A stretch of 32,383 bases of DNA from a virus (lineage: Duplodnaviria > Heunggongvirae > Uroviricota > Caudoviricetes): the IMG/VR virus record IMGVR_UViG_2861069343_000002, positions 1 to 32,383 of that record, one strand, 5' to 3'. This document shows, piece by piece, positions 6,501 to 23,020 of this stretch; the first letter of the stretch is position 1, and each line of letters opens with the position of its first letter. Position numbers and translations under genes: made by a program. The notes under the pieces were generated by a model that had not been told where the DNA came from, ran no database searches, and saw only the letters and a program-made list of their open reading frames with translations.

Positions 6501-7345
6501 TCCGCATTCATCTCAGACGTTTTTGCGGCCTTCGCGGAATTTCCTGCCGCCGTTGCCGAGGAAGCTGCACTGCCGGCGCTCGAGGCTGCGCTCGTTTCTG
6601 ATGATTTTGCCGCCACTTTTGAAGCCGACGCATCCCGGGCTGAGGTGGCAGCTTCTGACGCTTTCGTGGTCGCGGTGGATGCAGAAGTGGCCGCAGATTT
6701 TTGTGATGCTGCGGCATTCGTTTCTGACGTTTTCGCTGCACCGGCACTGGTGGCTGCCGCGCTTTTTGAAGACTCTGCAGCGGCAGCACTTTTTGATGCT
6801 TCAGTAGCCTTTGTTGATGCCGTTCCTGCGCTGGAAGACGCTGACTGAGCCGACGACGCGGCCTGTCCGGCTGACGTGCTGGCTGCGCGTGCGGAGTCCG
6901 CAGCATCAGTCGCATGGGTTGCCGCCTCACGGGCTGATGTGCGGGCATCACTGGCTGACTTCTTCGCGGCTGCCGTGTTCTGTGCCACTGCGGACGCGTT
7001 ACGCGCCACCTCTTCCACCATCAGTTCAAAGCGGCGCAGTGCCTCCGGACGGACATCATCCTCCGTCATGGCACCGAGAAAATCATTCAGCGTACCCGGT
7101 TGTGAGTCTTCATACACGGTGATGGTCCCGGCATGCGATGGCGGGAAGCCTTCCACCAACAGAATAACGCTGTACTGACCGTACTCAACGTCCATGCTGT
7201 AACGCCCGGCTTCATCCGGGTTTTCTGAGGCCACTGTGTTCACCACCACCGTGGTGCTGTTACGTTTTGCTTTCAGCTGGATTGTACAGTTCTGTACCGG
7301 TTTACCTGCACCGTCTTTCAGTACACCTGAAATCTTTACTGCCAT
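3587..7345 (-). CDS. stf: Side tail fiber protein (lambda Stf-like N-terminus, A/S/T-rich repeat region, C-terminal peptidase S74 intramolecular chaperone domain)
   Basis: N-terminus MAVKISGVLKDGAGKPVQNCTIQLKA matches lambda Stf N-terminus as recalled. Long Ala/Ser/Thr-rich repetitive segment. C-terminal SDRDLKDDI...NGYTYT...GVIAQEV motif of self-cleaving S74 chaperone. ATG at 7345 preferred over the in-frame GTG at 7351. Confidence 0.85.
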   Translation of the reverse strand: MAVKISGVLKDGAGKPVQNCTIQLKAKRNSTTVVVNTVASENPDEAGRYSMDVEYGQYSVILLVEGFPPSHAGTITVYEDSQPGTLNDFLGAMTEDDVRPEALRRFELMVEEVARNASAVAQNTAAAKKSASDARTSAREAATHATDAADSARAASTSAGQAASSAQSASSSAGTASTKATEASKSAAAAESSKSAAATSAGAAKTSETNAAASQKSAATSASTATTKASEAATSARDASASKVAAKSSETSAASSAGSAASSATAAGNSAKAAKTSEMNADNSAQAAADSQTASANSATAAKKSETNAKNSESAAKVSETNAKASENKAKEYLDKVGGLVSPMTQYDWPVVTGNESFYIKIAKLSDPGSNNCHVTLMVTNGGDYGSPYGNIDFIEISARGLPSSLTADNVSRYLSIRRLGPTGLINSMQMRYGLVKDDGFIEVWAFQRAFINGAKVAVLAQTARTELYIPDGFVKQTAAPSGYVESPVVRIYDQLNKPTKADLGLSNAMLTGAFGLGGSGISTNGKMSDVEILKALRDKGGHFWRGDKPTGSTATIYSHGSGIFSRCGDTWSAINIDYSTAKIKIYAGNDARLNNGTFSINELYGSANKPSKSDVGLGNVTNDAQVKKSGDVMSGDLDILKETPSIRLKSAKGTAHLWFMNNDGSERGVVWSPENNESLGEIHIRAKNTKGESSGDFIVRHDGRVEARNLKITYKISAATAEFANTSTSSDNTTVSIKGSQHTPLVLTSNNTIKNLSIGFKVDDVDQKYLGIAGDGDLYFGSYSDHTKNSKVITQAKLDSGVTVGGKTTFSDLATFNAGMAGSIEPETIDNKTIDLNDLIIANTVAGSVKYYQCKTVAGGAYITNKPDGVSGNFLLRVESTRKTTGSDYAIMQTLIGSDTKRIYVRFVVNGSWTEWSQVVVSGWNQDVTVRSLTSTTPSKLGGGRVDVLGSTSDYSSMNCAVRGVDSTGTNSAWSVGTSKNTGKMLCLKNHRSSAQVLLNGDDGAVQLLSGTVNGATAQALTINKDEVNSTADLVIRKQTGTGNRFALLNSGNSELPVGIRVWGSSTRQNVFEVGTSAAYLFYAQKTSAGQLFDVNGAINCTTLNQSSDRDLKDDILVISDATKAIRKMNGYTYTLRENGMPYAGVIAQEVMEAIPEAVGSFTHYGEELQGPTVDGNELREETRYLNVDYAAVTGLLVQVARETDDRVTALEEENTTLRENLATADTRISTLENQVSELVALVRQLTGSEH

Positions 7346-12780: not shown

Positions 12781-14739
12781 TTACGCCGTACATTTCACCA
12801 GACCGCGGTGATCAACTGGCGCGACACCGGCGTCAATACGCACTTTCGTTGTCACGCCATCCACACTGAAGCCCTCCATCTGATCAATATATGGCGTATC
12901 CACACCGTTGAGATAAGCCACTTCAATCGTATCGGAGCCTTTTGACGCAGCCAGGTAGAAGGTGGTCTGGCTGTTATCATCAAGACGAGGCTCTGCAATA
13001 ACGGTCGCAAAATCTTTCACCGGGTTAATAATACCGGCGTTAATGTCAGCCCCCTTGACACTTGAGGAGCGAATGACCTGGTTAGCAACAGACTCCATCG
13101 CCGTCGGTACCAGTACGAACGCAGGACGAATATTCAGATGACGCTCCCCCTCTTTCTGAACGCGCATCAACTGGCGGGCTTTATCCAGCGATGCCACGTC
13201 CATTGCAGCGCTCTCCAGTACGTTTGCATGTTTCGCTTTATCGAACAGACTTACATTATCTGTGGAGATTTTCGGGTTAGACGTCAGAATGGCATAAACC
13301 AGATCGGCAATAGTGGATTTCGCCGCACGGCCCAGTTTCATCGGGACATCGGTCAGCATATTCAGATCATCATTGATAATGGCCTGACGGGTGATACTGA
13401 ACAGCTCGCCATAGGTCGCCAGTGCAATAGTGGCCTGTTTATCTCCGGTGGTGACGTATTTATATTCCGCCCCTTCACGCACCTGACGCAGAGCACTGAA
13501 GCCCCCCATACCCACACGATGGGCAATTTTAAAATCAGACAACTGACCTTTCCGCGTCCACTGTTCATAGGTTTCAGGGGCATCTTCCCAGCCCTGCAGA
13601 ATGGCTTTGTTCGCAACATCCAGCAGAATATTACCGAAGTCAGACGTACTGTGTGTGAACGCCGCACCGACCATCTGCATCGGGTTATAACCGGAAACCC
13701 CAATACCCCGTTCAGTCAGTGACATACGGGCATATTCACGCAGGGTCATCCCGTTGTAGACATTATCACGTTCGGTTTTTTCAAATCCGGCACGCGCCAT
13801 CAGCGCCTGGCGAATCCCGTCCCCCACAAAATTACCGTTACCGGCATAAATATGAGCCGGGGTATTTTTATTGGATGGCGTGGACTCGCGCCCCATCTCG
13901 TTCAACAGCTTTTCACGGGCCTGCTCCAGCGAACATTCAGGATCGGCAAGACACTGAGCCTGCAGCGTCTGATAACGCCCGCCAAACATGGCAAACAGAT
14001 CATTAATACCGTTTACACGCGCTTTTTGCTCTGCCAGTACCTGTGCACGGATGCTGTTTTCATCCACCACGGGTGCTGCTGCCTGCACTGGCGTCCGGGA
14101 GGCTTCAGATTCATTATCCTGTACGCGTGGAGCACTGTTGCGTGGCGGAGTAATCATGTTTCGAATGGATTCCGGCATCTTTTTAAATTCCTCTGTACGT
14201 TTTGACTGAATACATGCCATTGCCTTAACGGCTGGCGTTACCTGATCAGCAAATCCATGTGCCAGACATTCGGCACCGGACATCCAGGTCTCATCCGCCA
14301 GCATGGCAGCAATTTCATCGGTGGTTTTCCCGGTTTTCTGTGCATAAGCGGGTAACAGAACCGCCTCAACTTTATCGAGCAGGTCGGCATAGGTGCGCAT
14401 GTCCTCCGCATCACCGCCCGTAAAGCCAAATGGTTTATGAATCATCATGAAGGTGTTTTCCGGCATAATGACCGGGTTTCCCACCATCGCAATGACCGAC
14501 GCCATTGACGCCGCCACACCGTCGACATAAACGGTAATGGACGCACCATGTGTTTTCAGCGCATTAAAAATGGCGATGCCTTCAAAGACATCGCCACCCG
14601 GTGAATTAATATGGAGATTAATGTGGGTGATATCGCCCAGTGCATTCAGATCACTGATAAACTGCTTCGCTGTAACACCCCAGAAACCAATCTCGTCATA
14701 AATATAAATATCCGCGTCACTCTGGTGACCAGCCTGCAT
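12781..14739 (-). CDS. Prohead protease (ClpP/S49-like) fused to HK97-fold major capsid protein
   Basis: N-terminal DADIYIYDEIGFWGV...INSPGGDVFEG...ASMASVIA serine protease motifs, long C-terminal capsid-like region; first ATG after portal stop chosen (14739); longest ORF extends to 15000. Confidence 0.75.
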   Translation of the reverse strand: MQAGHQSDADIYIYDEIGFWGVTAKQFISDLNALGDITHINLHINSPGGDVFEGIAIFNALKTHGASITVYVDGVAASMASVIAMVGNPVIMPENTFMMIHKPFGFTGGDAEDMRTYADLLDKVEAVLLPAYAQKTGKTTDEIAAMLADETWMSGAECLAHGFADQVTPAVKAMACIQSKRTEEFKKMPESIRNMITPPRNSAPRVQDNESEASRTPVQAAAPVVDENSIRAQVLAEQKARVNGINDLFAMFGGRYQTLQAQCLADPECSLEQAREKLLNEMGRESTPSNKNTPAHIYAGNGNFVGDGIRQALMARAGFEKTERDNVYNGMTLREYARMSLTERGIGVSGYNPMQMVGAAFTHSTSDFGNILLDVANKAILQGWEDAPETYEQWTRKGQLSDFKIAHRVGMGGFSALRQVREGAEYKYVTTGDKQATIALATYGELFSITRQAIINDDLNMLTDVPMKLGRAAKSTIADLVYAILTSNPKISTDNVSLFDKAKHANVLESAAMDVASLDKARQLMRVQKEGERHLNIRPAFVLVPTAMESVANQVIRSSSVKGADINAGIINPVKDFATVIAEPRLDDNSQTTFYLAASKGSDTIEVAYLNGVDTPYIDQMEGFSVDGVTTKVRIDAGVAPVDHRGLVKCTA

Positions 14740-14752
14740 CCTGAACCAGGAA

Positions 14753-16261
14753 TTATTCTTCGGACTGGTCGTCGGTGTGCTGCGGCTCCTGTCGTTTCGT
14801 TGCGGCACTACTGCCTCCTTTATCACTGGCCGGATCGGTATCAAATACCAGATCCAGCTTGCGGTTTTCATCAATTTCGGCCTTGCGCCGACGTTTGACA
14901 TCATCCGGATTACGACCACCAGCACGTACCCAGTCTGATTCTGTCGCCGCTCCACCACGAATCTGGATTTTCCAGGCCTCAGCCTCCTTAACAGGGTCAA
15001 TCCACGGCATCACCGGTCCGGAATACACCGCGGTATACAGTGAAGAACGGTCAAGATCGCGGGGTAGCCTGATAACACCGGATGCCACAGCCTGTTTCAG
15101 CCAGGCACGATACATCGGACGGGTGACGGCACCAATAAACCAGTCCTGCAGGATCAGGTAGCCATCAGTGGATTCAACCAGCTCCTGACGCTGGGCGCTG
15201 TAAGTGCCGTTATAGTTGCGCGCTGTACTGGAAAAACTCAGACGACTGCCCGCCGCCACGGCACGCAACTGACCATTACGAAAAGTTTCAAGGTTAGGAT
15301 TGGGGCGATCCGACTTCACCATTCCGATTTCTTCGCCGGGTTTCAGATCATCGTAAATAATGCCTGGCTGAATGGTAAGCTCGCGTTCCTTATCCTTGCT
15401 GCCATTACCATCCGCTTCATAGCTCTGCCCGTCGCCTTTCCGGATGTACATCCCCAGAGCAGCGGCGATCCTTGCTGCAGTCAGCTCAGAATCTTCATAC
15501 TCTTTCAGAGCACTGAGGCGGATCAGCACACCGGACAATAAAGACGTCCCGCGCATCTGGTGCAGACGGCGAACAAATTTAAGATGCAGCATTCGCTCTG
15601 CATCCACTTCTTTGGTTTCCATCTGCCGTCCGGATACGGGACGGCTTTTATACACCAGATATTTTTCGGGACGCCCCCAGTCATCAACAAACACGCCCTG
15701 ATTCAGCCTGTTGCTCTCATCACTGGTCATGGGAATAAAGTCCGGCTCGAGCGCCTCCAGCCAGAAATGAACACCGGCAGAAGGCGTCAGGCTGTTTATG
15801 CGCCCGGAAACCATCTGGGCAAACACCTCACCATCGCGCAGCCAGGTACGAAGCATCAGACGTTCCAGCATCGGACGGGTAAACTGCCCGGTGACTTCCG
15901 GGCTGACAGACCATTCACTCCATCGGGTGCGAATCTCCGCAGCCAGGTCACGGGCAATGGCCCCATTGCGTAATACCGGATGTGGCTCGACAATAATCCC
16001 GTTTTTCCCCACCACCCGTTCTTCCAGCTTGTCAAATACACCAATAACCAGATCGTGGTTGTTATCAAGGTAACGGGCCTGCTCACGTAACGACACGGCC
16101 CCGTACTGGCTTAACTGGTCGGCAGTTCGGTTCTCCCGTCGGGCTTTGTGTGTCCGCGTCGTTTTTACGGCCTCATAAGCCTGGATCACCGCACGGGAAC
16201 GCAGCCTTGCCGCTTTCCATCCTGGTGAAAAAACGCCAATCACATCATCAAGAATTGCCAT
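14753..16261 (-). CDS. Portal protein (lambda-family portal-like)
   Basis: About 500 aa ORF immediately upstream of the protease-capsid gene; no Walker A motif (argues against terminase); acidic C-terminus. Start uncertain: ATG 16261 (SD GAGG), ATG 16291 (ATGA overlap with endolysin stop) or GTG 16303. Confidence 0.65.
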   Translation of the reverse strand: MAILDDVIGVFSPGWKAARLRSRAVIQAYEAVKTTRTHKARRENRTADQLSQYGAVSLREQARYLDNNHDLVIGVFDKLEERVVGKNGIIVEPHPVLRNGAIARDLAAEIRTRWSEWSVSPEVTGQFTRPMLERLMLRTWLRDGEVFAQMVSGRINSLTPSAGVHFWLEALEPDFIPMTSDESNRLNQGVFVDDWGRPEKYLVYKSRPVSGRQMETKEVDAERMLHLKFVRRLHQMRGTSLLSGVLIRLSALKEYEDSELTAARIAAALGMYIRKGDGQSYEADGNGSKDKERELTIQPGIIYDDLKPGEEIGMVKSDRPNPNLETFRNGQLRAVAAGSRLSFSSTARNYNGTYSAQRQELVESTDGYLILQDWFIGAVTRPMYRAWLKQAVASGVIRLPRDLDRSSLYTAVYSGPVMPWIDPVKEAEAWKIQIRGGAATESDWVRAGGRNPDDVKRRRKAEIDENRKLDLVFDTDPASDKGGSSAATKRQEPQHTDDQSEE

Positions 16262-16287: not shown

Positions 16288-16785
16288 TCATTGTTGCCCC
16301 CACAAACAGACTTCACGCTCAATCTCACGACGAGTCATCAGGCCTTTCCATTGCTTACCGCCAGCGTATATCCAGCGACGTAGCTGGTCACATGCGCCTT
16401 TGATATCGCCCTGGTTTATTTTGCGAAGAAGCGTCGATGTTCTGAAATTACCAGCACCCACGTTGTAGACGAACGAGTAAAGAGCGCCGCGCGTTGTTTC
16501 CGGTATATCGACTTTGATGTACGGGTTAATTTGTCTGGCAACCGTGGCAAGGTCTTTATTCAGGAGGGCTTTGCATTCTGCTTCGGTATACGTTTTACCG
16601 AGCATGATGTCTTTTCCGGTGTGTCCGTGACATACAGTCCATACGCCAACGATATCTTTGTATGGTATGTAGCTGACACCTTCCAGGCCATCGTCACCAC
16701 TTGGGCCAGTGATTAACACTGATGCTATAGCAATTGCTCCGCCACCAATAGCAGCAGCAACTGCTTTTCGTAATGATGGAGGCAT
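16288..16785 (-). CDS. SAR endolysin (GH24 lysozyme with N-terminal signal-anchor-release domain)
   Basis: N-terminal Gly/Ala-rich weakly hydrophobic segment [20 protein letters not shown] followed by lysozyme-like domain; start overlaps pinholin stop by 1 nt. Confidence 0.8.
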
Positions 16786-17000
16786 TATTCACCTCTCGCA
16801 GCCTTGCGCTTATCTTCTTTAATCTTGAAATAAAGGTTTGTCAGGTACGTCAGCAGGCCAAATACCAGACTACCCAGCACACCTATTGCCGCCCACTGTG
16901 AGGGCGTGACTTTATCGAGCAACTGTAAAAACCAGTACCCGGCACTACCTGCTGAGGTGCCATAGGCGACACCCGTTGTTAACTTATCCATGGATTTCAT
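16785..17000 (-). CDS. Pinholin, phage 21 S-like with dual start motif (MKSMDK)
   Basis: [29 protein letters not shown]...[36 protein letters not shown] closely resembles phage 21 S21 (recalled); two in-frame ATGs separated by two codons; SD GAGGTG. Confidence 0.85.
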
Positions 17001-17036
17001 AACCCCACCTCGCAGATGCGGGTGCTGTGTAATGGA

Positions 17037-17061
17037 AATAAAAAGGCCACCTGACGTGGCC
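17037..17061 (-). terminator. Intrinsic terminator between the N6-MTase gene and the lysis cassette
   Basis: Minus-strand GGCCAC-GTCAG-GTGGCC hairpin followed by TTTTTATTT. Confidence 0.45.
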
Positions 17062-17067
17062 ACCAGA

Positions 17068-18120
17068 TTATTTCCCCACCAGCTCGTTTATCTCTTTCAC
17101 TGTCTGGTTAAACCGCTCTGACTCAAGCTCAACACCTAAGGCCCGACGCCCCAGCGCCATTGCTGCTTTTATTGTGGAACCGGATCCCATAAAAAAATCA
17201 GCAACCAGATCACCTGGTCGACTACTGGCATTGATTATTTGCCTGAGCATATCCGCCGGTTTCTCACACGGATGTTTCCCCGGGTAGAACTGAACGGGTT
17301 TATGCATCCAGACATCGGTATAAGGCACGGAGACTGATACGGAGAAATAGCGCCGGAGAGATTTAAACTCATCCAGCAATTCAGAATATTTGCGATTCAG
17401 TGAATCATAAGATGCCACCAGCTGGTGGTGTGGTTGTTCCAGTTGTTGTTCCTGAAACTTCTCTGCCGCTATACGGGAAAACAGTGCCTGTAACTTCCGA
17501 TAGTCAGCCTCATTCGGCAACTGCCACTGACTGGCACCAAACCAGTGGGAAACCATATTTTTCTTACCTGTGGCTTCGGCAATTTGTTTTGCCGTTACAC
17601 CCAGTTCGGCACGAGCATCCCTGAAATACGATATCAGCGGTGCCATTATGTGCTGTTTGAGTTCCCTTTCTTTTGCCGCATAGCCGTCACTTTTGCCGCG
17701 ATATGGTCCCTGGTAATGTTCAGCAAACAGAACGCGCTCTGTGGCAGGAAAATATGCGCGCAGACTTTCTTTATTACACCCATTCCAACGTCCGGACGGC
17801 TTCGCCCAGATGATATGGTTAAGCACGTTGAAACGTTCACGCATCATGATCTCAATATCAGATGCCAGGCGATGCCCACAGAACAGGTAAAGGCTTCCGG
17901 CAGGTTTCAACACCCGCCAGAACTGGGCCAGACAGTGGTCCAGCCACTTAAGGTAATCTTCGTCCCCTTTCCACTGATTGTCCCAACCGTTGGGTTTCAC
18001 CTTGAAGTAAGGCGGATCGGTAACAATCAGGTCAATGGAATCATCAGGCAGGGACTGAATAAAATGCAGGCAATCAGCGTTGATTAAATCAACACTGTTT
18101 ATTTTTACAGTATTTTTCAT
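17068..18120 (-). CDS. DNA N6-adenine (or N4-cytosine) methyltransferase, beta-class, orphan phage MTase
   Basis: Motif IV DPPY near N-terminus (LIVTDPPYF) and AdoMet motif I FMGSGST near C-terminus; 350 aa. Confidence 0.8.
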
Positions 18121-18269
18121 GGATCAGTAAGCGTAACTCTGGTAGGCTCACTCTGCTTTTGCGCTAAAGCAGTGGGCCGTGGTTCGCTTGTGACCAGTAA
18201 GCATGAGCGAATGGCTGGCAGGTGCTACCAACACCCACCAGCCGCCCATTTTCACAAATTAAAAGTCCT

Positions 18270-18464
18270 TCATTGCTGAAGGCGTCTGTAACAGCCGAAC
18301 TGGTAATCTGCCAGCCCCGCCATAACCAACTGGGTCAGTATTAACTGACAGCGTTCGCGTGAAAGATATGTGTTTTGTGCAATCTCCCCGACTGTTGCCG
18401 GTTCGATGCTTAATTCATTAAAAACAACTTTCGCCGTTTCTGTCATATCTTGCTGTTTTAGCAT
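18270..18464 (-). CDS. Hypothetical small protein, possible HTH
   Basis: 64 aa from ATG 18464 with SD AAGGA; segment TVGEIAQNTYLSRERCQL is HTH-like. Weak support. Confidence 0.3.
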   Translation of the reverse strand: MLKQQDMTETAKVVFNELSIEPATVGEIAQNTYLSRERCQLILTQLVMAGLADYQFGCYRRLQQ

Positions 18465-18586
18465 GTCTTTTTTCCTTCTGGTTAACATGACATACCAATA
18501 ACTCTTGTCTAAAAAGCCAGCAAGATAAAAAGTCAGTATTCACGACCACCAGCGTGTTTACCGTACTGCACCAGGTTTACAGGTAC

Positions 18587-18612
18587 AAAAAAACCCGCTC
18601 GACGGCGGGTTT
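18587..18612 (-). terminator. Strong minus-strand intrinsic terminator upstream of the plus-strand cassette
   Basis: Minus-strand AAACCCGC-CGTCGA-GCGGGTTT hairpin followed by TTTTTTT. Confidence 0.5.
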
Positions 18613-18657
18613 AAGTTGTGTGGCGAAGTAACCACTCTTAACACAATACAATACTTT

Positions 18658-18686
18658 TTGCGTACGCGTTATAGTTTTCTTACAAT
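18658..18686 (+). promoter_or_regulatory. Candidate sigma70 promoter of the DUF262-HEPN cassette
   Basis: TTGCGT (18658..18663), 17 nt spacer, TACAAT (18681..18686); SD AAGGAA then ATG at 18713. Confidence 0.3.
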
Positions 18687-18712
18687 CAACTTTCAATTAA
18701 AGGAACGAAAAC

Positions 18713-19873
18713 ATGACTACACTCAAAGAACTCAAAGAAGAGCTTGCTCAGATACAAGATGAACACGCTAAGAACAGAAAAAAGGCTGAAATTGCAGCTT
18801 TAACCGCTTCCGCTGACAATGAAATCAGACTCGCTCAGAGAAACATTGGATACAATGTACGTGAGTGGACCGTTGAAGTCATTATTCAAAAGTATGGTGA
18901 TAATATTGAAAATGACAAAAACGAGCTTTTTATTCCAGATTATCAACGTGATTACAAGTGGGATACAAAAACAGCCTCTCGCTTTATAGAAAGTATTCTA
19001 TTAGACTTTCCAATACCTTACCTTTACATTGCTGATGTATTTAATGAAGACCCTGAATTAGATGGTAGGGTAGAAATCATTGATGGTTCACAACGGATAC
19101 GCTCTATTTATTATTTTTGGAACGATCAATTTGAGTTAAAGGATTTGAAAGAGCTTAAAAGTTTAGAAGGTTTCAAATTTTCAGATCTTTTAGCTAGCCG
19201 CCAAAGAAGATTTTTAAGAGCTTCACTAAGATTTATTGAGTTGAAAGGTGATGTTGAGGAACAACATAGAAGAGATTTATTTGAAAGGATCAACTCAGGT
19301 GTTAAAAGATTAGAAGCGATGGAAGTGAGGCATGGCTCAGATGCTGCTACCTCAATGTTCTATAAAGATGTTGTGACCCCATGCTCAACAAACTCACTTT
19401 TTTCCCAACTAGCTCCATTATCAGACCGGAAACGGTCGAATGGCGATCATCGTGAGTTAGTTTTGAGATTTTTTGCATATTTAAATGATTTAGAAAACTA
19501 TAAGGGATTTGTCCGTCCCTTTATTGATAATTATTTAAATGAACAAGCAGCAGCTGTGACTACTCAACAAGATGTTGATAATTTTAAACATGATTTTGAA
19601 ATGATGCTTGCTTTTGTTGCTACCCATTTCCCTATTGGCTTTAAAAAGACCGCAACAAGTAAAACCACCCCACGAGCCAGATACGAAGCCATTGCCGTGG
19701 GAACTGCACTTGCATTAAAAACTAACCCACAACTCCAGAGTCCAGCCGTACCTGTAGGTGAATGGCTATTTGAAGAGGAATTTGAAACACTTGTTACTGC
19801 TGATAGTGCAAACAATACCAGCCAGCTAAAAAACAGAATCTTTTACGTTAAAAATAAGTTGTTAGGGATTTAA
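18713..19873 (+). CDS. DUF262 (ParB/Srx-like, GmrS-type N-terminal domain) protein
   Basis: 386 aa; hallmark motifs FIPDYQRDYKW and IIDGSQRIRSI (DGQQR variant); no DUF1524/HNH C-terminal domain evident; AT-rich. Confidence 0.75.
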   Translation: MTTLKELKEELAQIQDEHAKNRKKAEIAALTASADNEIRLAQRNIGYNVREWTVEVIIQKYGDNIENDKNELFIPDYQRDYKWDTKTASRFIESILLDFPIPYLYIADVFNEDPELDGRVEIIDGSQRIRSIYYFWNDQFELKDLKELKSLEGFKFSDLLASRQRRFLRASLRFIELKGDVEEQHRRDLFERINSGVKRLEAMEVRHGSDAATSMFYKDVVTPCSTNSLFSQLAPLSDRKRSNGDHRELVLRFFAYLNDLENYKGFVRPFIDNYLNEQAAAVTTQQDVDNFKHDFEMMLAFVATHFPIGFKKTATSKTTPRARYEAIAVGTALALKTNPQLQSPAVPVGEWLFEEEFETLVTADSANNTSQLKNRIFYVKNKLLGI

Positions 19874-19875
19874 AA

Positions 19876-20565
19876 ATGAGTCTAATTGATTTACGAGATG
19901 AATATGAAGAAAGAGCAAGAGACATTATGGAACTGCTTTCTCTTGCATCATCTATAGAGATTCATACTCAGCAGTTAGATCCGCAAGCGCATCAAGATGA
20001 AATAGAATCTAATATCCTAAGGGTAAATATTTTAAAATCATCCGTTCATATGATGCTATATAATCAAGTTGAAAATACTGCCAGAGGTTGCATCGAGTCA
20101 ATTTATGATCATTTACAAGATAATGAGGTGAATTACGCATCACTCAGGGAGAAGCTTCAAGTAAATATATTACATAGAATTGTTTCAGATAATGAAACAG
20201 GGCAATCCCTTTATAAAAAGATAGGCACTGACATTTCCAAAAGAATAATTTCAGCCTCATTGAATATTCGTAAAGAATTCAATGGTAATGTTTGCAAGCC
20301 TGTATTACACAAAATAACGCAGGCTTACGGAATAACTATCGCAAACTCACCTGAATGTAGAAATGGTATTGACTTAGACTTGCTTAAGGATATCAGAAAC
20401 GAACTCGCGCATGGAAGTACTAGCTTCTCTAAAAAGGGGCAAATTGACCCCTTAGAAGAAGTTAAGTCTAGAGCAGAGAGAGTTGATCTATATCTTCGTT
20501 TATTAATAAACTCAACTGAAGATTATATTATCTCTAACGGATATTTATCCCCTCAACATGCCTAA
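19876..20565 (+). CDS. HEPN-domain protein (Rx4H motif), putative RNase effector coupled to the DUF262 gene
   Basis: 229 aa; RNELAH matches HEPN R-x4-6-H; starts 2 nt after the DUF262 stop with SD AGGGA; 3' end overlaps convergent MTase gene by 32 nt. Confidence 0.65.
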   Translation: MSLIDLRDEYEERARDIMELLSLASSIEIHTQQLDPQAHQDEIESNILRVNILKSSVHMMLYNQVENTARGCIESIYDHLQDNEVNYASLREKLQVNILHRIVSDNETGQSLYKKIGTDISKRIISASLNIRKEFNGNVCKPVLHKITQAYGITIANSPECRNGIDLDLLKDIRNELAHGSTSFSKKGQIDPLEEVKSRAERVDLYLRLLINSTEDYIISNGYLSPQHA

Positions 20566-21574
20566 CAAACGTTCTCCCTATTACTTGGCCAATTATAGGG
20601 GGAACAGCATTACCAATCATCGTTCCTAACTTTTGGAATGAAAAAGGCGTATTTTTTCCAATAAATTTATAATCCATAGGAAAAGATTGTAAAATAGCAG
20701 CTTCACGCAAAGTTATTGCTCTATTTTGCTCAGGATGTCCGAATCGCCCATTACCATATCCATAACATTGGGTAGTTATTGTAGGACTAGTATCGTCCCA
20801 AACCATCCGTCCATAAACACTTTTATAGGTAGCACCTGAATGCTTTTTATGGCAATCCGCTCTAATTTCTTCAGGCCAATCATCCCACGTACCACCTGGT
20901 AAAGAGTGCAAGATTCGTTTAAGGTTAATATCCCTTAATTTAGGCGAACGATGCAATGGATCACTTTCGAGTTTCTCCCCTGCACCTATTTTTGGCAACT
21001 GACCAATAGCATCCTTTACTGTAACTTTACGGCTTACTTTTTTTTGATCAAGGCTGATTGGCCCCAATATGGACCCAATTAGAATTAATCTACGTCTATT
21101 TTGAGGCAAGCCATACTCGGAACATTTTACAACGTCGTACCACAGATGATACCCAAGAGTCTTTAATACACTAACAAACTCTTCAAAAACCTTATGATTT
21201 CTAAGTTGAGGAACATTTTCCATAGTCACAAGCTCTGGCATGACATCACTTACAATCCTCTGAAACTCAGATAAAAGACGCCACTTTGTATCATCTTTTC
21301 TGCTATTTGGATTACGATACTTGGAAAACGGTTGGCAAGGGGCACAGCCTGCAAGTAATCTAATATTTCCTTCCTTGAACATAGCAGACACATCGCTGGA
21401 TTGCAGTTCAGTAACTGACTGGTTAATGAACTTCGTTAAGGGATTATTGCTCTCAATAGCGAAACGGCAGGACTCATCAATATCAATGCCATGAGAAACT
21501 TCAATCCCGGCTTTTTTTAGCCCAAAAGTTAAGCCCCCTGCGCCACAAAAAATGTCTACTGCTTGAATGTTCAC
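20534..21574 (-). CDS. DNA cytosine-5 methyltransferase (Dcm-like), first gene of the late operon
   Basis: Motif I DIFCGAGG, motif IV GCAPCQPFS (catalytic PC), motif VI ENV, motif VIII QNRRR, motif X GNAV; GTG start at 21574 with SD GGAGAA. Confidence 0.85.
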   Translation of the reverse strand: MNIQAVDIFCGAGGLTFGLKKAGIEVSHGIDIDESCRFAIESNNPLTKFINQSVTELQSSDVSAMFKEGNIRLLAGCAPCQPFSKYRNPNSRKDDTKWRLLSEFQRIVSDVMPELVTMENVPQLRNHKVFEEFVSVLKTLGYHLWYDVVKCSEYGLPQNRRRLILIGSILGPISLDQKKVSRKVTVKDAIGQLPKIGAGEKLESDPLHRSPKLRDINLKRILHSLPGGTWDDWPEEIRADCHKKHSGATYKSVYGRMVWDDTSPTITTQCYGYGNGRFGHPEQNRAITLREAAILQSFPMDYKFIGKNTPFSFQKLGTMIGNAVPPIIGQVIGRTFVRHVEGINIR

Positions 21575-21600
21575 AAGATTCTCCGTTACTTTACCCTGGT

Positions 21601-21629
21601 ATTATATACACATAAAAGTTGGGAAAGTA
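21601..21629 (-). promoter_or_regulatory. Candidate late promoter (pR'-like) downstream of Q
   Basis: Minus-strand TATAAT (plus attata 21601..21606) in the 79-bp Q-to-MTase gap; -35 poor (TACTTT). Confidence 0.25.
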
Positions 21630-21653: not shown

Positions 21654-22007
21654 TCATTGTATTAAATAAAAAAATGACAAGCATCCATCAATAAACCCCA
21701 TAGCTGTTTGCATATCTTTTCGAACTGTTCCGTCTGAACATTTCCGCTTCTTTGCAATTGTACGGAGCGAAATGCCAACAACAAAGTGAGCAATTATCAG
21801 CTCATACTCTGCCGGCTTGTATTTACGCAACCTAGCGACACAACCGTCTATTATGATGCCCTCATCATCATCGCACTGAATCCGGGACTTTCTGCCATGA
21901 GGTAAAAGCCGCTTGAAGCCAGCAGCTACCGGTTGCCAGTCCACACCACTGTTTTCTGCAGCAGCCCATGCCCCCCAGCGGTCCAAAACTTCATACATAT
22001 CACGCAT
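21654..22007 (-). CDS. Late gene antiterminator Q-family protein (Phage_antitermQ-like)
   Basis: LDRWGAWAA...W...AAGFKRL...SRIQCDDDEGIIIDGCVARL pattern matches small phage Q proteins as recalled; position before late operon; ATG 22007 with SD GGAGAAAG. Confidence 0.65.
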   Translation of the reverse strand: MRDMYEVLDRWGAWAAAENSGVDWQPVAAGFKRLLPHGRKSRIQCDDDEGIIIDGCVARLRKYKPAEYELIIAHFVVGISLRTIAKKRKCSDGTVRKDMQTAMGFIDGCLSFFYLIQ

Positions 22008-22024: not shown

Positions 22025-23020
22025 TCAGGCCAGCACGCCAATTGCCAGCGCACGATCGATAAAACGAAATATCAGCTCCAGCTGGGAGCCATACATCTCT
22101 TCAAATGCCACGGTATCTGCATGCAGCTCGTCGTGATGCTTTCTGCACAAAGGCAACACAAAGAGGTCATGCGCTTTTGTACCCATTCCACCCTGACCGT
22201 GACCTATCAGGTGGTGGGGATCATCAGCAGGCTTTCCACAACATGCACACGGCTGTGTCTTAACCCAGCGCGTGTACTTTTCATTAACCCAGCGGCGACG
22301 TTTTGGGCGTAACATAAAAGACTCCGGCGACTCCGGATCCACTTTCAGCGCCAGCACCTTTTTCGCCTTATCCTGGATGATGCTGGTAGCAGGAACCGAA
22401 GGCACAAGGTCACTTTCCCGGGTGACAGACGGCACAACAGGCTTCGGTAATCTCAGTGCCTTACGGGCTGCACTTTCCGGTAAGGCATCCGCCAGGTCAT
22501 TACGAATCAGCCACCAGCACAGTTCCGGCATTGTCACAACGTGACTGTCATCAAAACCGAGATCCCGACGCACAACAGACAACACCCAGCGGGCACAGTT
22601 ATCCGTTGCCATTGATTCCAGCCGTTCCGTGAACTGATCACGCAGCTGGTTATCGCAGTGCCAGCACAGACGGATTGCACCCGGAGCGTGTCGCATTGTG
22701 GTCATGTTCTCGCTGTGCCAGTCGGAATGAGGCCACTGGCAGCCTTTTTCACGAAGTAACCAGCTTTCAAGACATTCCACGCCACCAGCACGACGGATCA
22801 CTGCCTCATTGCGGAACACGGCCCAAACGGCAGGATCATCCGCCAGCGGTTGTGACGCCGCGGGAACGGCACCACTGGCGAAAGATGAATAATGCTCCGG
22901 CTCAGGCTCCAGCAGGACACGCCCCTGCATAAACAGGGGCATCAGCTCTGAACCGGGCCTGAACAATACGATCCCCATACGCGGGGCAATTTCAGGGGTC
23001 AGTAGTGCTCTCACGGTCAC
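22025..23020 (-). CDS. DUF968 protein (YdfU-like) with C-terminal HNH-like zinc motif
   Basis: C-terminus QPCACCGKPADDPHHLIGHGQGGMGTKAHDLFVLPLCRKHHDELH; GTG start at 23020 (alternative ATG 22978). Confidence 0.65.
   Translation of the reverse strand: MTVRALLTPEIAPRMGIVLFRPGSELMPLFMQGRVLLEPEPEHYSSFASGAVPAASQPLADDPAVWAVFRNEAVIRRAGGVECLESWLLREKGCQWPHSDWHSENMTTMRHAPGAIRLCWHCDNQLRDQFTERLESMATDNCARWVLSVVRRDLGFDDSHVVTMPELCWWLIRNDLADALPESAARKALRLPKPVVPSVTRESDLVPSVPATSIIQDKAKKVLALKVDPESPESFMLRPKRRRWVNEKYTRWVKTQPCACCGKPADDPHHLIGHGQGGMGTKAHDLFVLPLCRKHHDELHADTVAFEEMYGSQLELIFRFIDRALAIGVLA

Follow-up and report, generated by a model that had tools for sequence, protein, structure and literature searches.

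A stretch of 32,383 nucleotides from a tailed virus (IMG/VR record IMGVR_UViG_2861069343_000002, positions 1 to 32,383; hereafter the window) was analysed with regard to its antiterminator Q and to the late promoter on which Q probably acts. The region from 16.2 to 23 kb is part of a lambdoid prophage, with early-right and late genes on the minus strand (Table 1). An earlier note on this DNA had proposed the gene order Q, C5 cytosine DNA methyltransferase (C5-MTase), HEPN and DUF262, N6/N4 DNA methyltransferase (N6-MTase), holin, and this order was borne out by Pfam matches and by the coordinates of the open reading frames (ORFs). A Q-family antiterminator is indeed encoded upstream of the late genes. 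The Q protein is 47% identical to QuuD of the K-12 prophage DLP12, and its sole matches in the PDB are the distant phage 21 Q structures 6P18/6JNX (E = 0.002). The cassette region (18.5-21.5 kb) has a GC content of 35-39% as compared to about 50% around it; within it, the C5-MTase and HEPN genes are convergent and their 3′ ends overlap by 32 nt. Further along the minus strand, a 72-residue ORF is 99% identical at the DNA level to SfV orf47, the N6-MTase gene occupies the same place as in SfV, Ayreon, cdtI and mEp460, and the holin gene has the length and the start motif of the phage 21 S gene.

Table 1. Features of the 16.2-23 kb region, by descending position in the window (aa, amino acids; SAR, signal-anchor-release)
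Feature	Position	Strand	Evidence or details
DUF968 gene	22025-23020	-	
Q antiterminator gene	21654-22007 (probable ATG 22007; mechanical ORF from TTG 22022)	-	PF06530 Phage_antitermQ, E = 5e-46
C5-MTase gene	20534-21574	-	PF00145, E = 3e-54; PADLOC MTase_II/DrmMII-like
HEPN gene, MAE_28990-type	19876-20565	+	PF18737, E = 3e-17
DUF262/GmrSD_N gene	18713-19873	+	PF03235, E = 6e-26; PADLOC NsnA 5.9e-45, PD-T4-2_A 4.6e-27
Predicted cassette promoter	18658-18686	+	-35 TTGCGT (18658-18663), 17 nt, -10 TACAAT (18681-18686)
Invariant 16-nt block AACGCGTACGCAAAAA, candidate Q-binding element (QBE)	18655-18670	-	Conservation and position
Two overlapping -10-like hexamers, candidate -10 of the late promoter pR′	TATTGT 18653-18648; TATTGT 18648-18643	-	
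TAAGAG, candidate sigma-dependent pause element (SDPE)	18640-18635	-	Followed by T and GGTTACTTCGC, to 18623
Terminator 1	18612-18584	-	8-bp stem AAACCCGC/GCGGGTTT, 6-nt loop, T7 run
72-aa winged-helix-like ORF, SfV orf47 homologue	18270-18488	-	Weak DprA_WH/TrmB matches
N6-MTase gene	17068-18120	-	PF01555, E = 2e-42; PADLOC MTase_II 6e-152
Terminator 2	17061-17036	-	6-bp GC stem GGCCAC/GTGGCC, then TTTTTATTT
S21-type class II holin gene, dual start MKSM	16785-17000	-	PF04971; first late lysis gene
SAR endolysin/lysozyme gene	16288-16785	-	PF00959

The organization of this region was compared in 80 IMG/VR loci encoding the same Q. Seventy-six of them have a variable insert of 615-3741 nt after Q and, next to the insert, a conserved core of about 60 nt, located at 18672-18613 in the window. 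Two further loci (L069 and L071) keep a variant with a CTAACGCGTACGCAAAA block, and the two others are truncated. The consensus of the core is CTAACGCGTACGCAAAAA-n-TATTGT-ATyGTGT-TAAGAG-TGGTTACTTCGCCACACArCTTAAAC, followed by a hairpin corresponding to terminator 1. The loci cease to be homologous about 25 nt upstream of the Q stop codon and, in most loci, an antisense gene ends 0-30 nt from this stop. Therefore, no conserved promoter can follow Q. Comparison with other phages delimited the core. With SfV and Ayreon, which carry an unrelated Q of 250 residues, homology to the window begins exactly at hairpin 1. With vB_EcoS-569R4, which carries the same short Q and another two-gene antisense insert, homology resumes 67 nt upstream of the hairpin. 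The 16-nt block at the beginning of the core occurs together with this Q in 78 of the 80 loci and is absent from phages having another Q type.

A chimeric query made of Q joined to the core was then used to search complete E. coli genomes for empty sites. Q and the core were contiguous in one alignment in 14 complete genomes. In E. coli Combat2C1 (NZ_CP019243.1, locus L087), 16 nt separate the Q stop from the core, after which come the hairpin with its T-run, sense-strand late cargo and the holins. The empty site has the canonical layout of Q, late promoter pR′ and promoter-proximal terminator tR′, and shows that the 2.98-kb cassette of the window is an insertion between Q and the core. Hence, a candidate late promoter is found immediately after Q in the 14 empty-site genomes and 2.98 kb away from it in the window. 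The core is also very common. A 106-nt query comprising the core, the hairpin and flanking sequence gave an at least partial match in 3,725 of 5,426 complete E. coli genomes (about 70%), always in unannotated intergenic DNA, some of these matches spanning only the part from the -10 region or from the hairpin on, which is common to phages of other Q types. Places with the core number 5,942 in E. coli genomes. In Combat2C1, the genes directly after the core and terminator (L087 3079-4365) code for a scabin-related ADP-ribosyltransferase and a subtilase-family AB5 toxin binding subunit. Their position is that of stx in Stx phages, and they would be Q-controlled toxin genes.

Q was shown to load only onto a sigma-containing complex paused near the promoter, beside the QBE (Yin et al., bioRxiv 10.1101/651190). 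Therefore, the Q-responsive start is expected within the conserved element. Taken together, the empty site and the Q-type-specific element place pR′ at 18672-18613, with hairpin 1 as tR′. We consider it likely that the window contains a late regulatory unit of the phage 21 style that was split by an insertion, the core being the Q-responsive promoter.

The anatomy of the core is consistent with this assignment. On the minus strand, the block (18670-18655) is followed by 1 nt, the first TATTGT, 7 nt and TAAGAG. Among 42 distinct core sequences, recovered with a capture pattern fixing 13 of the 16 bases, the block is identical throughout; an unconstrained alignment reveals a single variant, in L013. 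The block is unique in the window. The first -10-like hexamer has A2 in 41 and T6 in all 42 variants. In the second one, T1, A2 and T6 are present in all 42 (TAnnnT), and the DLP12 counterpart is TATGCT. Transcription is predicted to start near 18641 with the first hexamer or near 18636 with the second one. The TAAGAG hexamer together with the pause context is also unique in the window, and none of 100 shuffled sequences matched it. With a lambda-like spacing, the pause would occur at C18625/G18624. Separately, we observed that the invariant block holds a palindrome, GCGTACGC, whose DLP12 counterpart is ACGTACGT (L084 4698-4712). Two other promoters were considered in this area. TTGAAA-17-TATAAC (18696-18668) was rejected as pR′ since both of its hexamers are missing from other loci and from the empty site. 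An extended -10 promoter made of TGTTAAGAG with TACGCA as a -35 is a minor possibility; the lambda and phage 21 alignments put TAAGAG in the transcribed region.

The two hairpins of Table 1 correspond to intrinsic terminators that the earlier note had claimed at 18587..18612 and 17037..17061, and several lines of evidence show that they are real. They are the best two minus-strand terminator-like sites within 13-25 kb, a region where the scan found 30 such sites against 12.2 ± 4.6 in shuffled sequences. The 62-nt leader holding hairpin 1 folds at -20.1 kcal/mol (z = -3.1) and the 3′ region holding hairpin 2 at -19.8 kcal/mol (z = -5.1); in both cases, 0 of 200 shuffled sequences folded as well. 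At the positions homologous to both hairpins, terminators are annotated in SfV and Ayreon. Terminator 1 is kept across 32 sequence variants that differ mostly in the loop and are followed by at least four unrelated downstream flanks. Terminator 2 is nearly invariant among relatives. It begins 6 nt past the stop codon of the N6-MTase gene, so that this cargo gene is directly followed by its own terminator, a feature of morons. The N6-MTase gene is probably a moron carried within the late operon.

An intrinsic terminator is thus present between the inferred promoter and the late genes, and no other promoter was recognized on the way to the lysis genes. The consensus scan called no minus-strand promoter-like site in 17000-18600, where inspection by eye yielded weak candidates only. 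An independent late promoter just upstream of the holin, which according to the earlier note would speak against read-through, was looked for. Neither the scan nor the sequence gave any sign of it from hairpin 2 to the start codon of the holin gene, a distance of 44 nt that leaves no room for one. Therefore, the part of the Q-dependent antitermination proposal that concerns the late side stands, with terminator 1, the winged-helix ORF, the N6-MTase gene and terminator 2 preceding the holin without an intervening promoter; the location of pR′ beside Q does not. Late gene expression very probably relies on processive antitermination of the Q type. With pR′ in the core, the late transcript therefore has to read through two terminators and the N6-MTase gene, and not through the cassette.

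The following mechanism can be proposed. The Q gene (21654-22007) would be parted from its cognate late promoter by the 2.98-kb C5-MTase/HEPN/DUF262 cassette. The promoter would comprise, in this order, the 16-bp block as the QBE, the -10 TATTGT, a start near 18641, TAAGAG and the lambda-like pause context GGTTACTTCG. In the absence of Q, RNA polymerase would terminate at tR′ (18612-18584), giving an RNA of about 55 nt. Once Q is loaded at the sigma-dependent pause, transcription would continue across tR′, the small ORF, the N6-MTase gene and terminator 2, and the Q-modified transcript would reach the holin, endolysin and structural genes. The cassette would lie upstream of pR′ and divergent from it, the late start being about 70 nt away from the DUF262 start codon, toward the late genes. 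If this re-assignment of the promoter is right, the whole cassette (18713-21574) is located upstream of the start near 18641 and the arrangement is not that of a noncontiguous operon. The anatomy, its conservation, its co-occurrence with the Q type, the empty site and the predicted stability of the terminators are shown, whereas the start site, Q binding, pausing, antitermination and the activity of the cassette promoter are all inferred.

Among the closest parallels is phage 21, for which element sequences were taken from the annotation of OL657228.1. There, the -35 TTGACA of pR′ begins 7 nt after the Q stop and the 16-bp QBE, ATTGAGCA + AATGAGCA, fills the spacer. The -10 is AACACT, the start lies 7 nt later, the SDPE TAAGCT is at +2 to +7 and the terminator at +3 to +50. 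Phage 21 shares with the window a Q of family PF06530, a 16-bp block before the -10, the 7-nt gap, a TAAGnn hexamer and, downstream, genes for an S21-type holin and a SAR endolysin. The window hairpin ends about 55-57 nt from the start near 18641, as compared to about 46-50 nt for the phage 21 terminator. In contrast, the two Q proteins are distant (phmmer E = 0.002; 117 residues in the window versus 162), the window block is unrelated to ATTGAGCA/AATGAGCA, its core has no TTGACA -35, and the promoter unit is 2.98 kb away from Q instead of 7 nt.

The initial transcribed region can also be aligned with that of lambda, where the pause hexamer is AACGAT (+1 to +6) and the known pause lies at C+16/G+17. 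Lambda has AACGAT, G and GGTTAATTCGC where the window has TAAGAG, T and GGTTACTTCGC, at identical spacing. In both, the pause hexamer is followed by GGTTAnTTCGC, which places the pause 15-16 nt after the first base of the hexamer, and a constitutive short terminated transcript would precede the late genes of the window as the 6S RNA does in lambda. Lambda differs by its Q family (PF03589), by its good -35 and by a terminator at +194 as compared to about +55. The K-12 prophage DLP12 resembles the window in having quuD, an antisense moron (the porin gene nmpC), a core with its hairpin, and essD-rrrD-rzpD; core and hairpin lie about 120 nt upstream of its S21-type holin gene. Its core has diverged, with the block variant TACGTACGTAAAAAA and TATGCT as the -10 candidate. 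Unlike the window, DLP12 lacks both an N6-MTase module and a terminator 2, and it carries a porin gene instead of the methylase, DUF262 and HEPN genes.

Several observations weigh against the assignment of pR′ to the core. The main weakness is that no -35 hexamer is recognizable before either -10 candidate, even at the empty site; the junction with variable DNA falls exactly at the expected -35 position, and the sigma70 consensus scan called no promoter in the core. The two overlapping -10 candidates are not separable by sequence, and DLP12 fits the second one alone. The block lacks the direct repeat of two 8-bp subsites seen in the phage 21 QBE, and TAAGAG does not end with the T expected of a -10-like element. 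Finally, the block might be kept, partly or wholly, as the supplier of the -35 of the cassette promoter. Because the consensus scan called neither the core nor the minus strand of 21601-21629, where the earlier note had located pR′, the assignment was made by comparative data.

In that earlier proposal, a Q-modified transcript starting next to Q would run over the C5-MTase gene, antisense through HEPN and DUF262 and past both terminators, and would thereby collide with cassette transcription. Phage 21 and lambda, as canonical lambdoid phages, do have pR′ directly after Q. The segment contains a perfect TATAAT (21606-21601), and the minus strand has no strong terminator from Q to 18612. A precedent also exists: the Q-dependent operon of phi80 contains the antisense defence gene tai, and TaiEcA is lowered when Q is overexpressed (PMC11364771). 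However, the only promoter-like site found by the scan at 21601-21629 is on the plus strand. By eye, the TATAAT has no -35 (TACTTT) and precedes the C5-MTase GTG by 27 nt. The 79-nt post-Q segment is part of the cassette: it is present solely in loci with the same C5-MTase cassette and in no other locus that has this Q. In other loci, an antisense gene directly adjoins the Q stop. The core motifs, the Q-site block and the pause context have no copy near 21600, and it is the core, not the post-Q segment, that adjoins Q at the empty site. The proposed pR′ is most likely misplaced, and 21601-21629 is at best the promoter of the C5-MTase gene itself; the model built on it is very improbable. Since its promoter assignment is contradicted by the comparative data, a late transcript crossing the cassette is not supported, and the collision that depends on this placement loses its basis. 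The tai/ati locus of phi80 still resembles the window in opposing a prophage defence gene to Q-controlled late genes and in the idea of a coupling between late expression and defence. The difference is that the phi80 gene lies within the Q-dependent transcript, whereas the window cassette is upstream of the inferred pR′, divergent from it, and should not be crossed.

The lack of a -35 on the late strand would also be explained if the core were no late promoter at all. It could be a regulatory or insulating module, providing a -35 or operator to the cassette together with a shielding terminator, the late genes being transcribed from another downstream promoter, for instance one using a stress sigma factor as reported for DLP12. 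The cassette-strand -35 in the block does have a suitably placed -10 partner in 14 of 17 cassette types, and the DLP12 lysis genes are under RpoE as well as Q control according to work cited in PMC7918800, as that article presents it. Against this, the core is unchanged at the empty site, where neither a cassette nor a cassette -10 is present; it goes with the type of Q and not with the cassette or the genes downstream; its 3′ half can be matched, with identical spacing, to the first transcribed bases of pR′ in lambda and phage 21; and the interval before the holin is too short and devoid of any promoter-like site, as described above. We find this explanation unlikely. A collision of another kind is compatible with pR′ in the core and would add a layer to it. 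After induction, early transcripts covering Q, or any started at the C5-MTase promoter, could run antisense through HEPN and DUF262 until stopped by tR′ or Rho. They would not be Q-modified, and tR′ would stop them. On the minus strand, only one weak terminator-like site (19521-19502) is found from the Q stop to 18612, and the convergence of the C5-MTase and HEPN genes favors such an overlap of transcription. However, untranslated antisense RNA is a typical Rho substrate. Moreover, cassettes elsewhere are mostly purely antisense and abut Q, some having a hairpin between Q and the cassette (L069), which suggests that read-through from Q is usually blocked. This added layer is conceivable, though on balance doubtful.

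The interval between Q and the core behaves as an insertion hotspot. At least 17 distinct low-GC insert types, 615-3741 nt long, are found there in 78 loci, almost all made of one or two genes antisense to Q. The window cassette is the only type also carrying a sense-strand gene, that of the C5-MTase, and it may be a methylation-linked restriction-like system. PADLOC matches to candidate defence families were obtained for a RelA/SpoT protein in L017 (PDC-S33), a metallophosphoesterase-STAND protein in L020 (PDC-S60) and a protein in L064 (PDC-M53A); six of the ten other, non-window cassette proteins tested had no match. NA37-like and ion-channel-like proteins are also encoded by hotspot inserts. 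The site thereby resembles the P2/P4 defence hotspots (Rousset et al. 2022, PMC9122126), with a fixed position and many unrelated low-GC systems of one or two genes, some matching known or candidate defence families. It differs from them by its lambdoid lineage, by its location between the gene of a regulator and the promoter that this regulator targets, and because cassettes appear to share half of a promoter with the flank.

Indeed, the -35 TTGCGT of the predicted cassette promoter lies inside the invariant block and the -10 comes with the cassette; a Shine-Dalgarno sequence, AAGGA, and the DUF262 ATG at 18713 follow. TAnnnT is present at the equal offset in 14 of 17 distinct cassette types (TAGAAT, TATAAT, TATCAT, TATATT; read with a 1-nt shift), which are not fully independent as some cassettes share about 15 nt of extra homology at this offset. 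The empty site has TCATAA there. This pattern suggests back-to-back promoters sharing the invariant block.

The C-terminal tail of Q was observed to differ by cassette type (21654-21685 in the window as compared to L003 and L013-L083). The limits of homology suggest that cassettes would be exchanged by recombination, using the Q body and the core as homology arms. In the variant core of L069 and L071 (about 7260-7330), CTAACGCGTACGCAAAA is followed by TACAAT..TAAAGT without a hairpin, and the N6-MTase region comes directly after; this may be a late control region that was rearranged or has decayed. In the same two loci, Q and the antisense gene are separated by a hairpin that looks bidirectional.

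Outside this region, the Rfam scan of the whole window at gathering thresholds returned tRNA-Thr alone and no RNA family at the core or the terminators. The tRNA-Thr (CGU) gene (30940-31015, minus strand) adjoins an integrase-sized ORF (31130-32383) and is likely the attachment site of the prophage. At 12781-15000, a 739-residue ORF, judged by eye from its translation, has a ClpP-like protease segment followed by a capsid-like segment. This suggests a protease-major capsid fusion, whose true start is probably internal.

In the literature searched, no description of the target sites of QuuD-type Q proteins was found, and nothing relevant on a defence hotspot between Q and pR′ or on sigma-dependent pausing in DLP12, which is not proof of novelty. 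As far as this literature goes, the kind of system is known, and what is new is the cargo between Q and its promoter and the late promoter region of the QuuD type.

Overall, the analysis assigns predicted, testable coordinates to the late promoter, pause site and tR′ that go with QuuD-type Q proteins. It corrects, in a type of prophage that is very common in E. coli, the plausible mis-annotation rule that pR′ is whatever follows Q. With its clean anchors, the Q body and the 60-nt core, the hotspot can be mined for new defence systems. The architecture also suggests a link between Q binding and the shut-off of prophage defence. More speculatively, the interval from Q to the late promoter would be a dedicated and very widespread hotspot in which antisense defence cassettes plug into a hybrid promoter, so that Q binding, or occupancy of one of the two promoters by RNA polymerase, would directly switch the cassette off as the late genes start. 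We give this extended proposal a rather low probability. If true, the prophage would have a built-in way of avoiding self-targeting without antisense collision.

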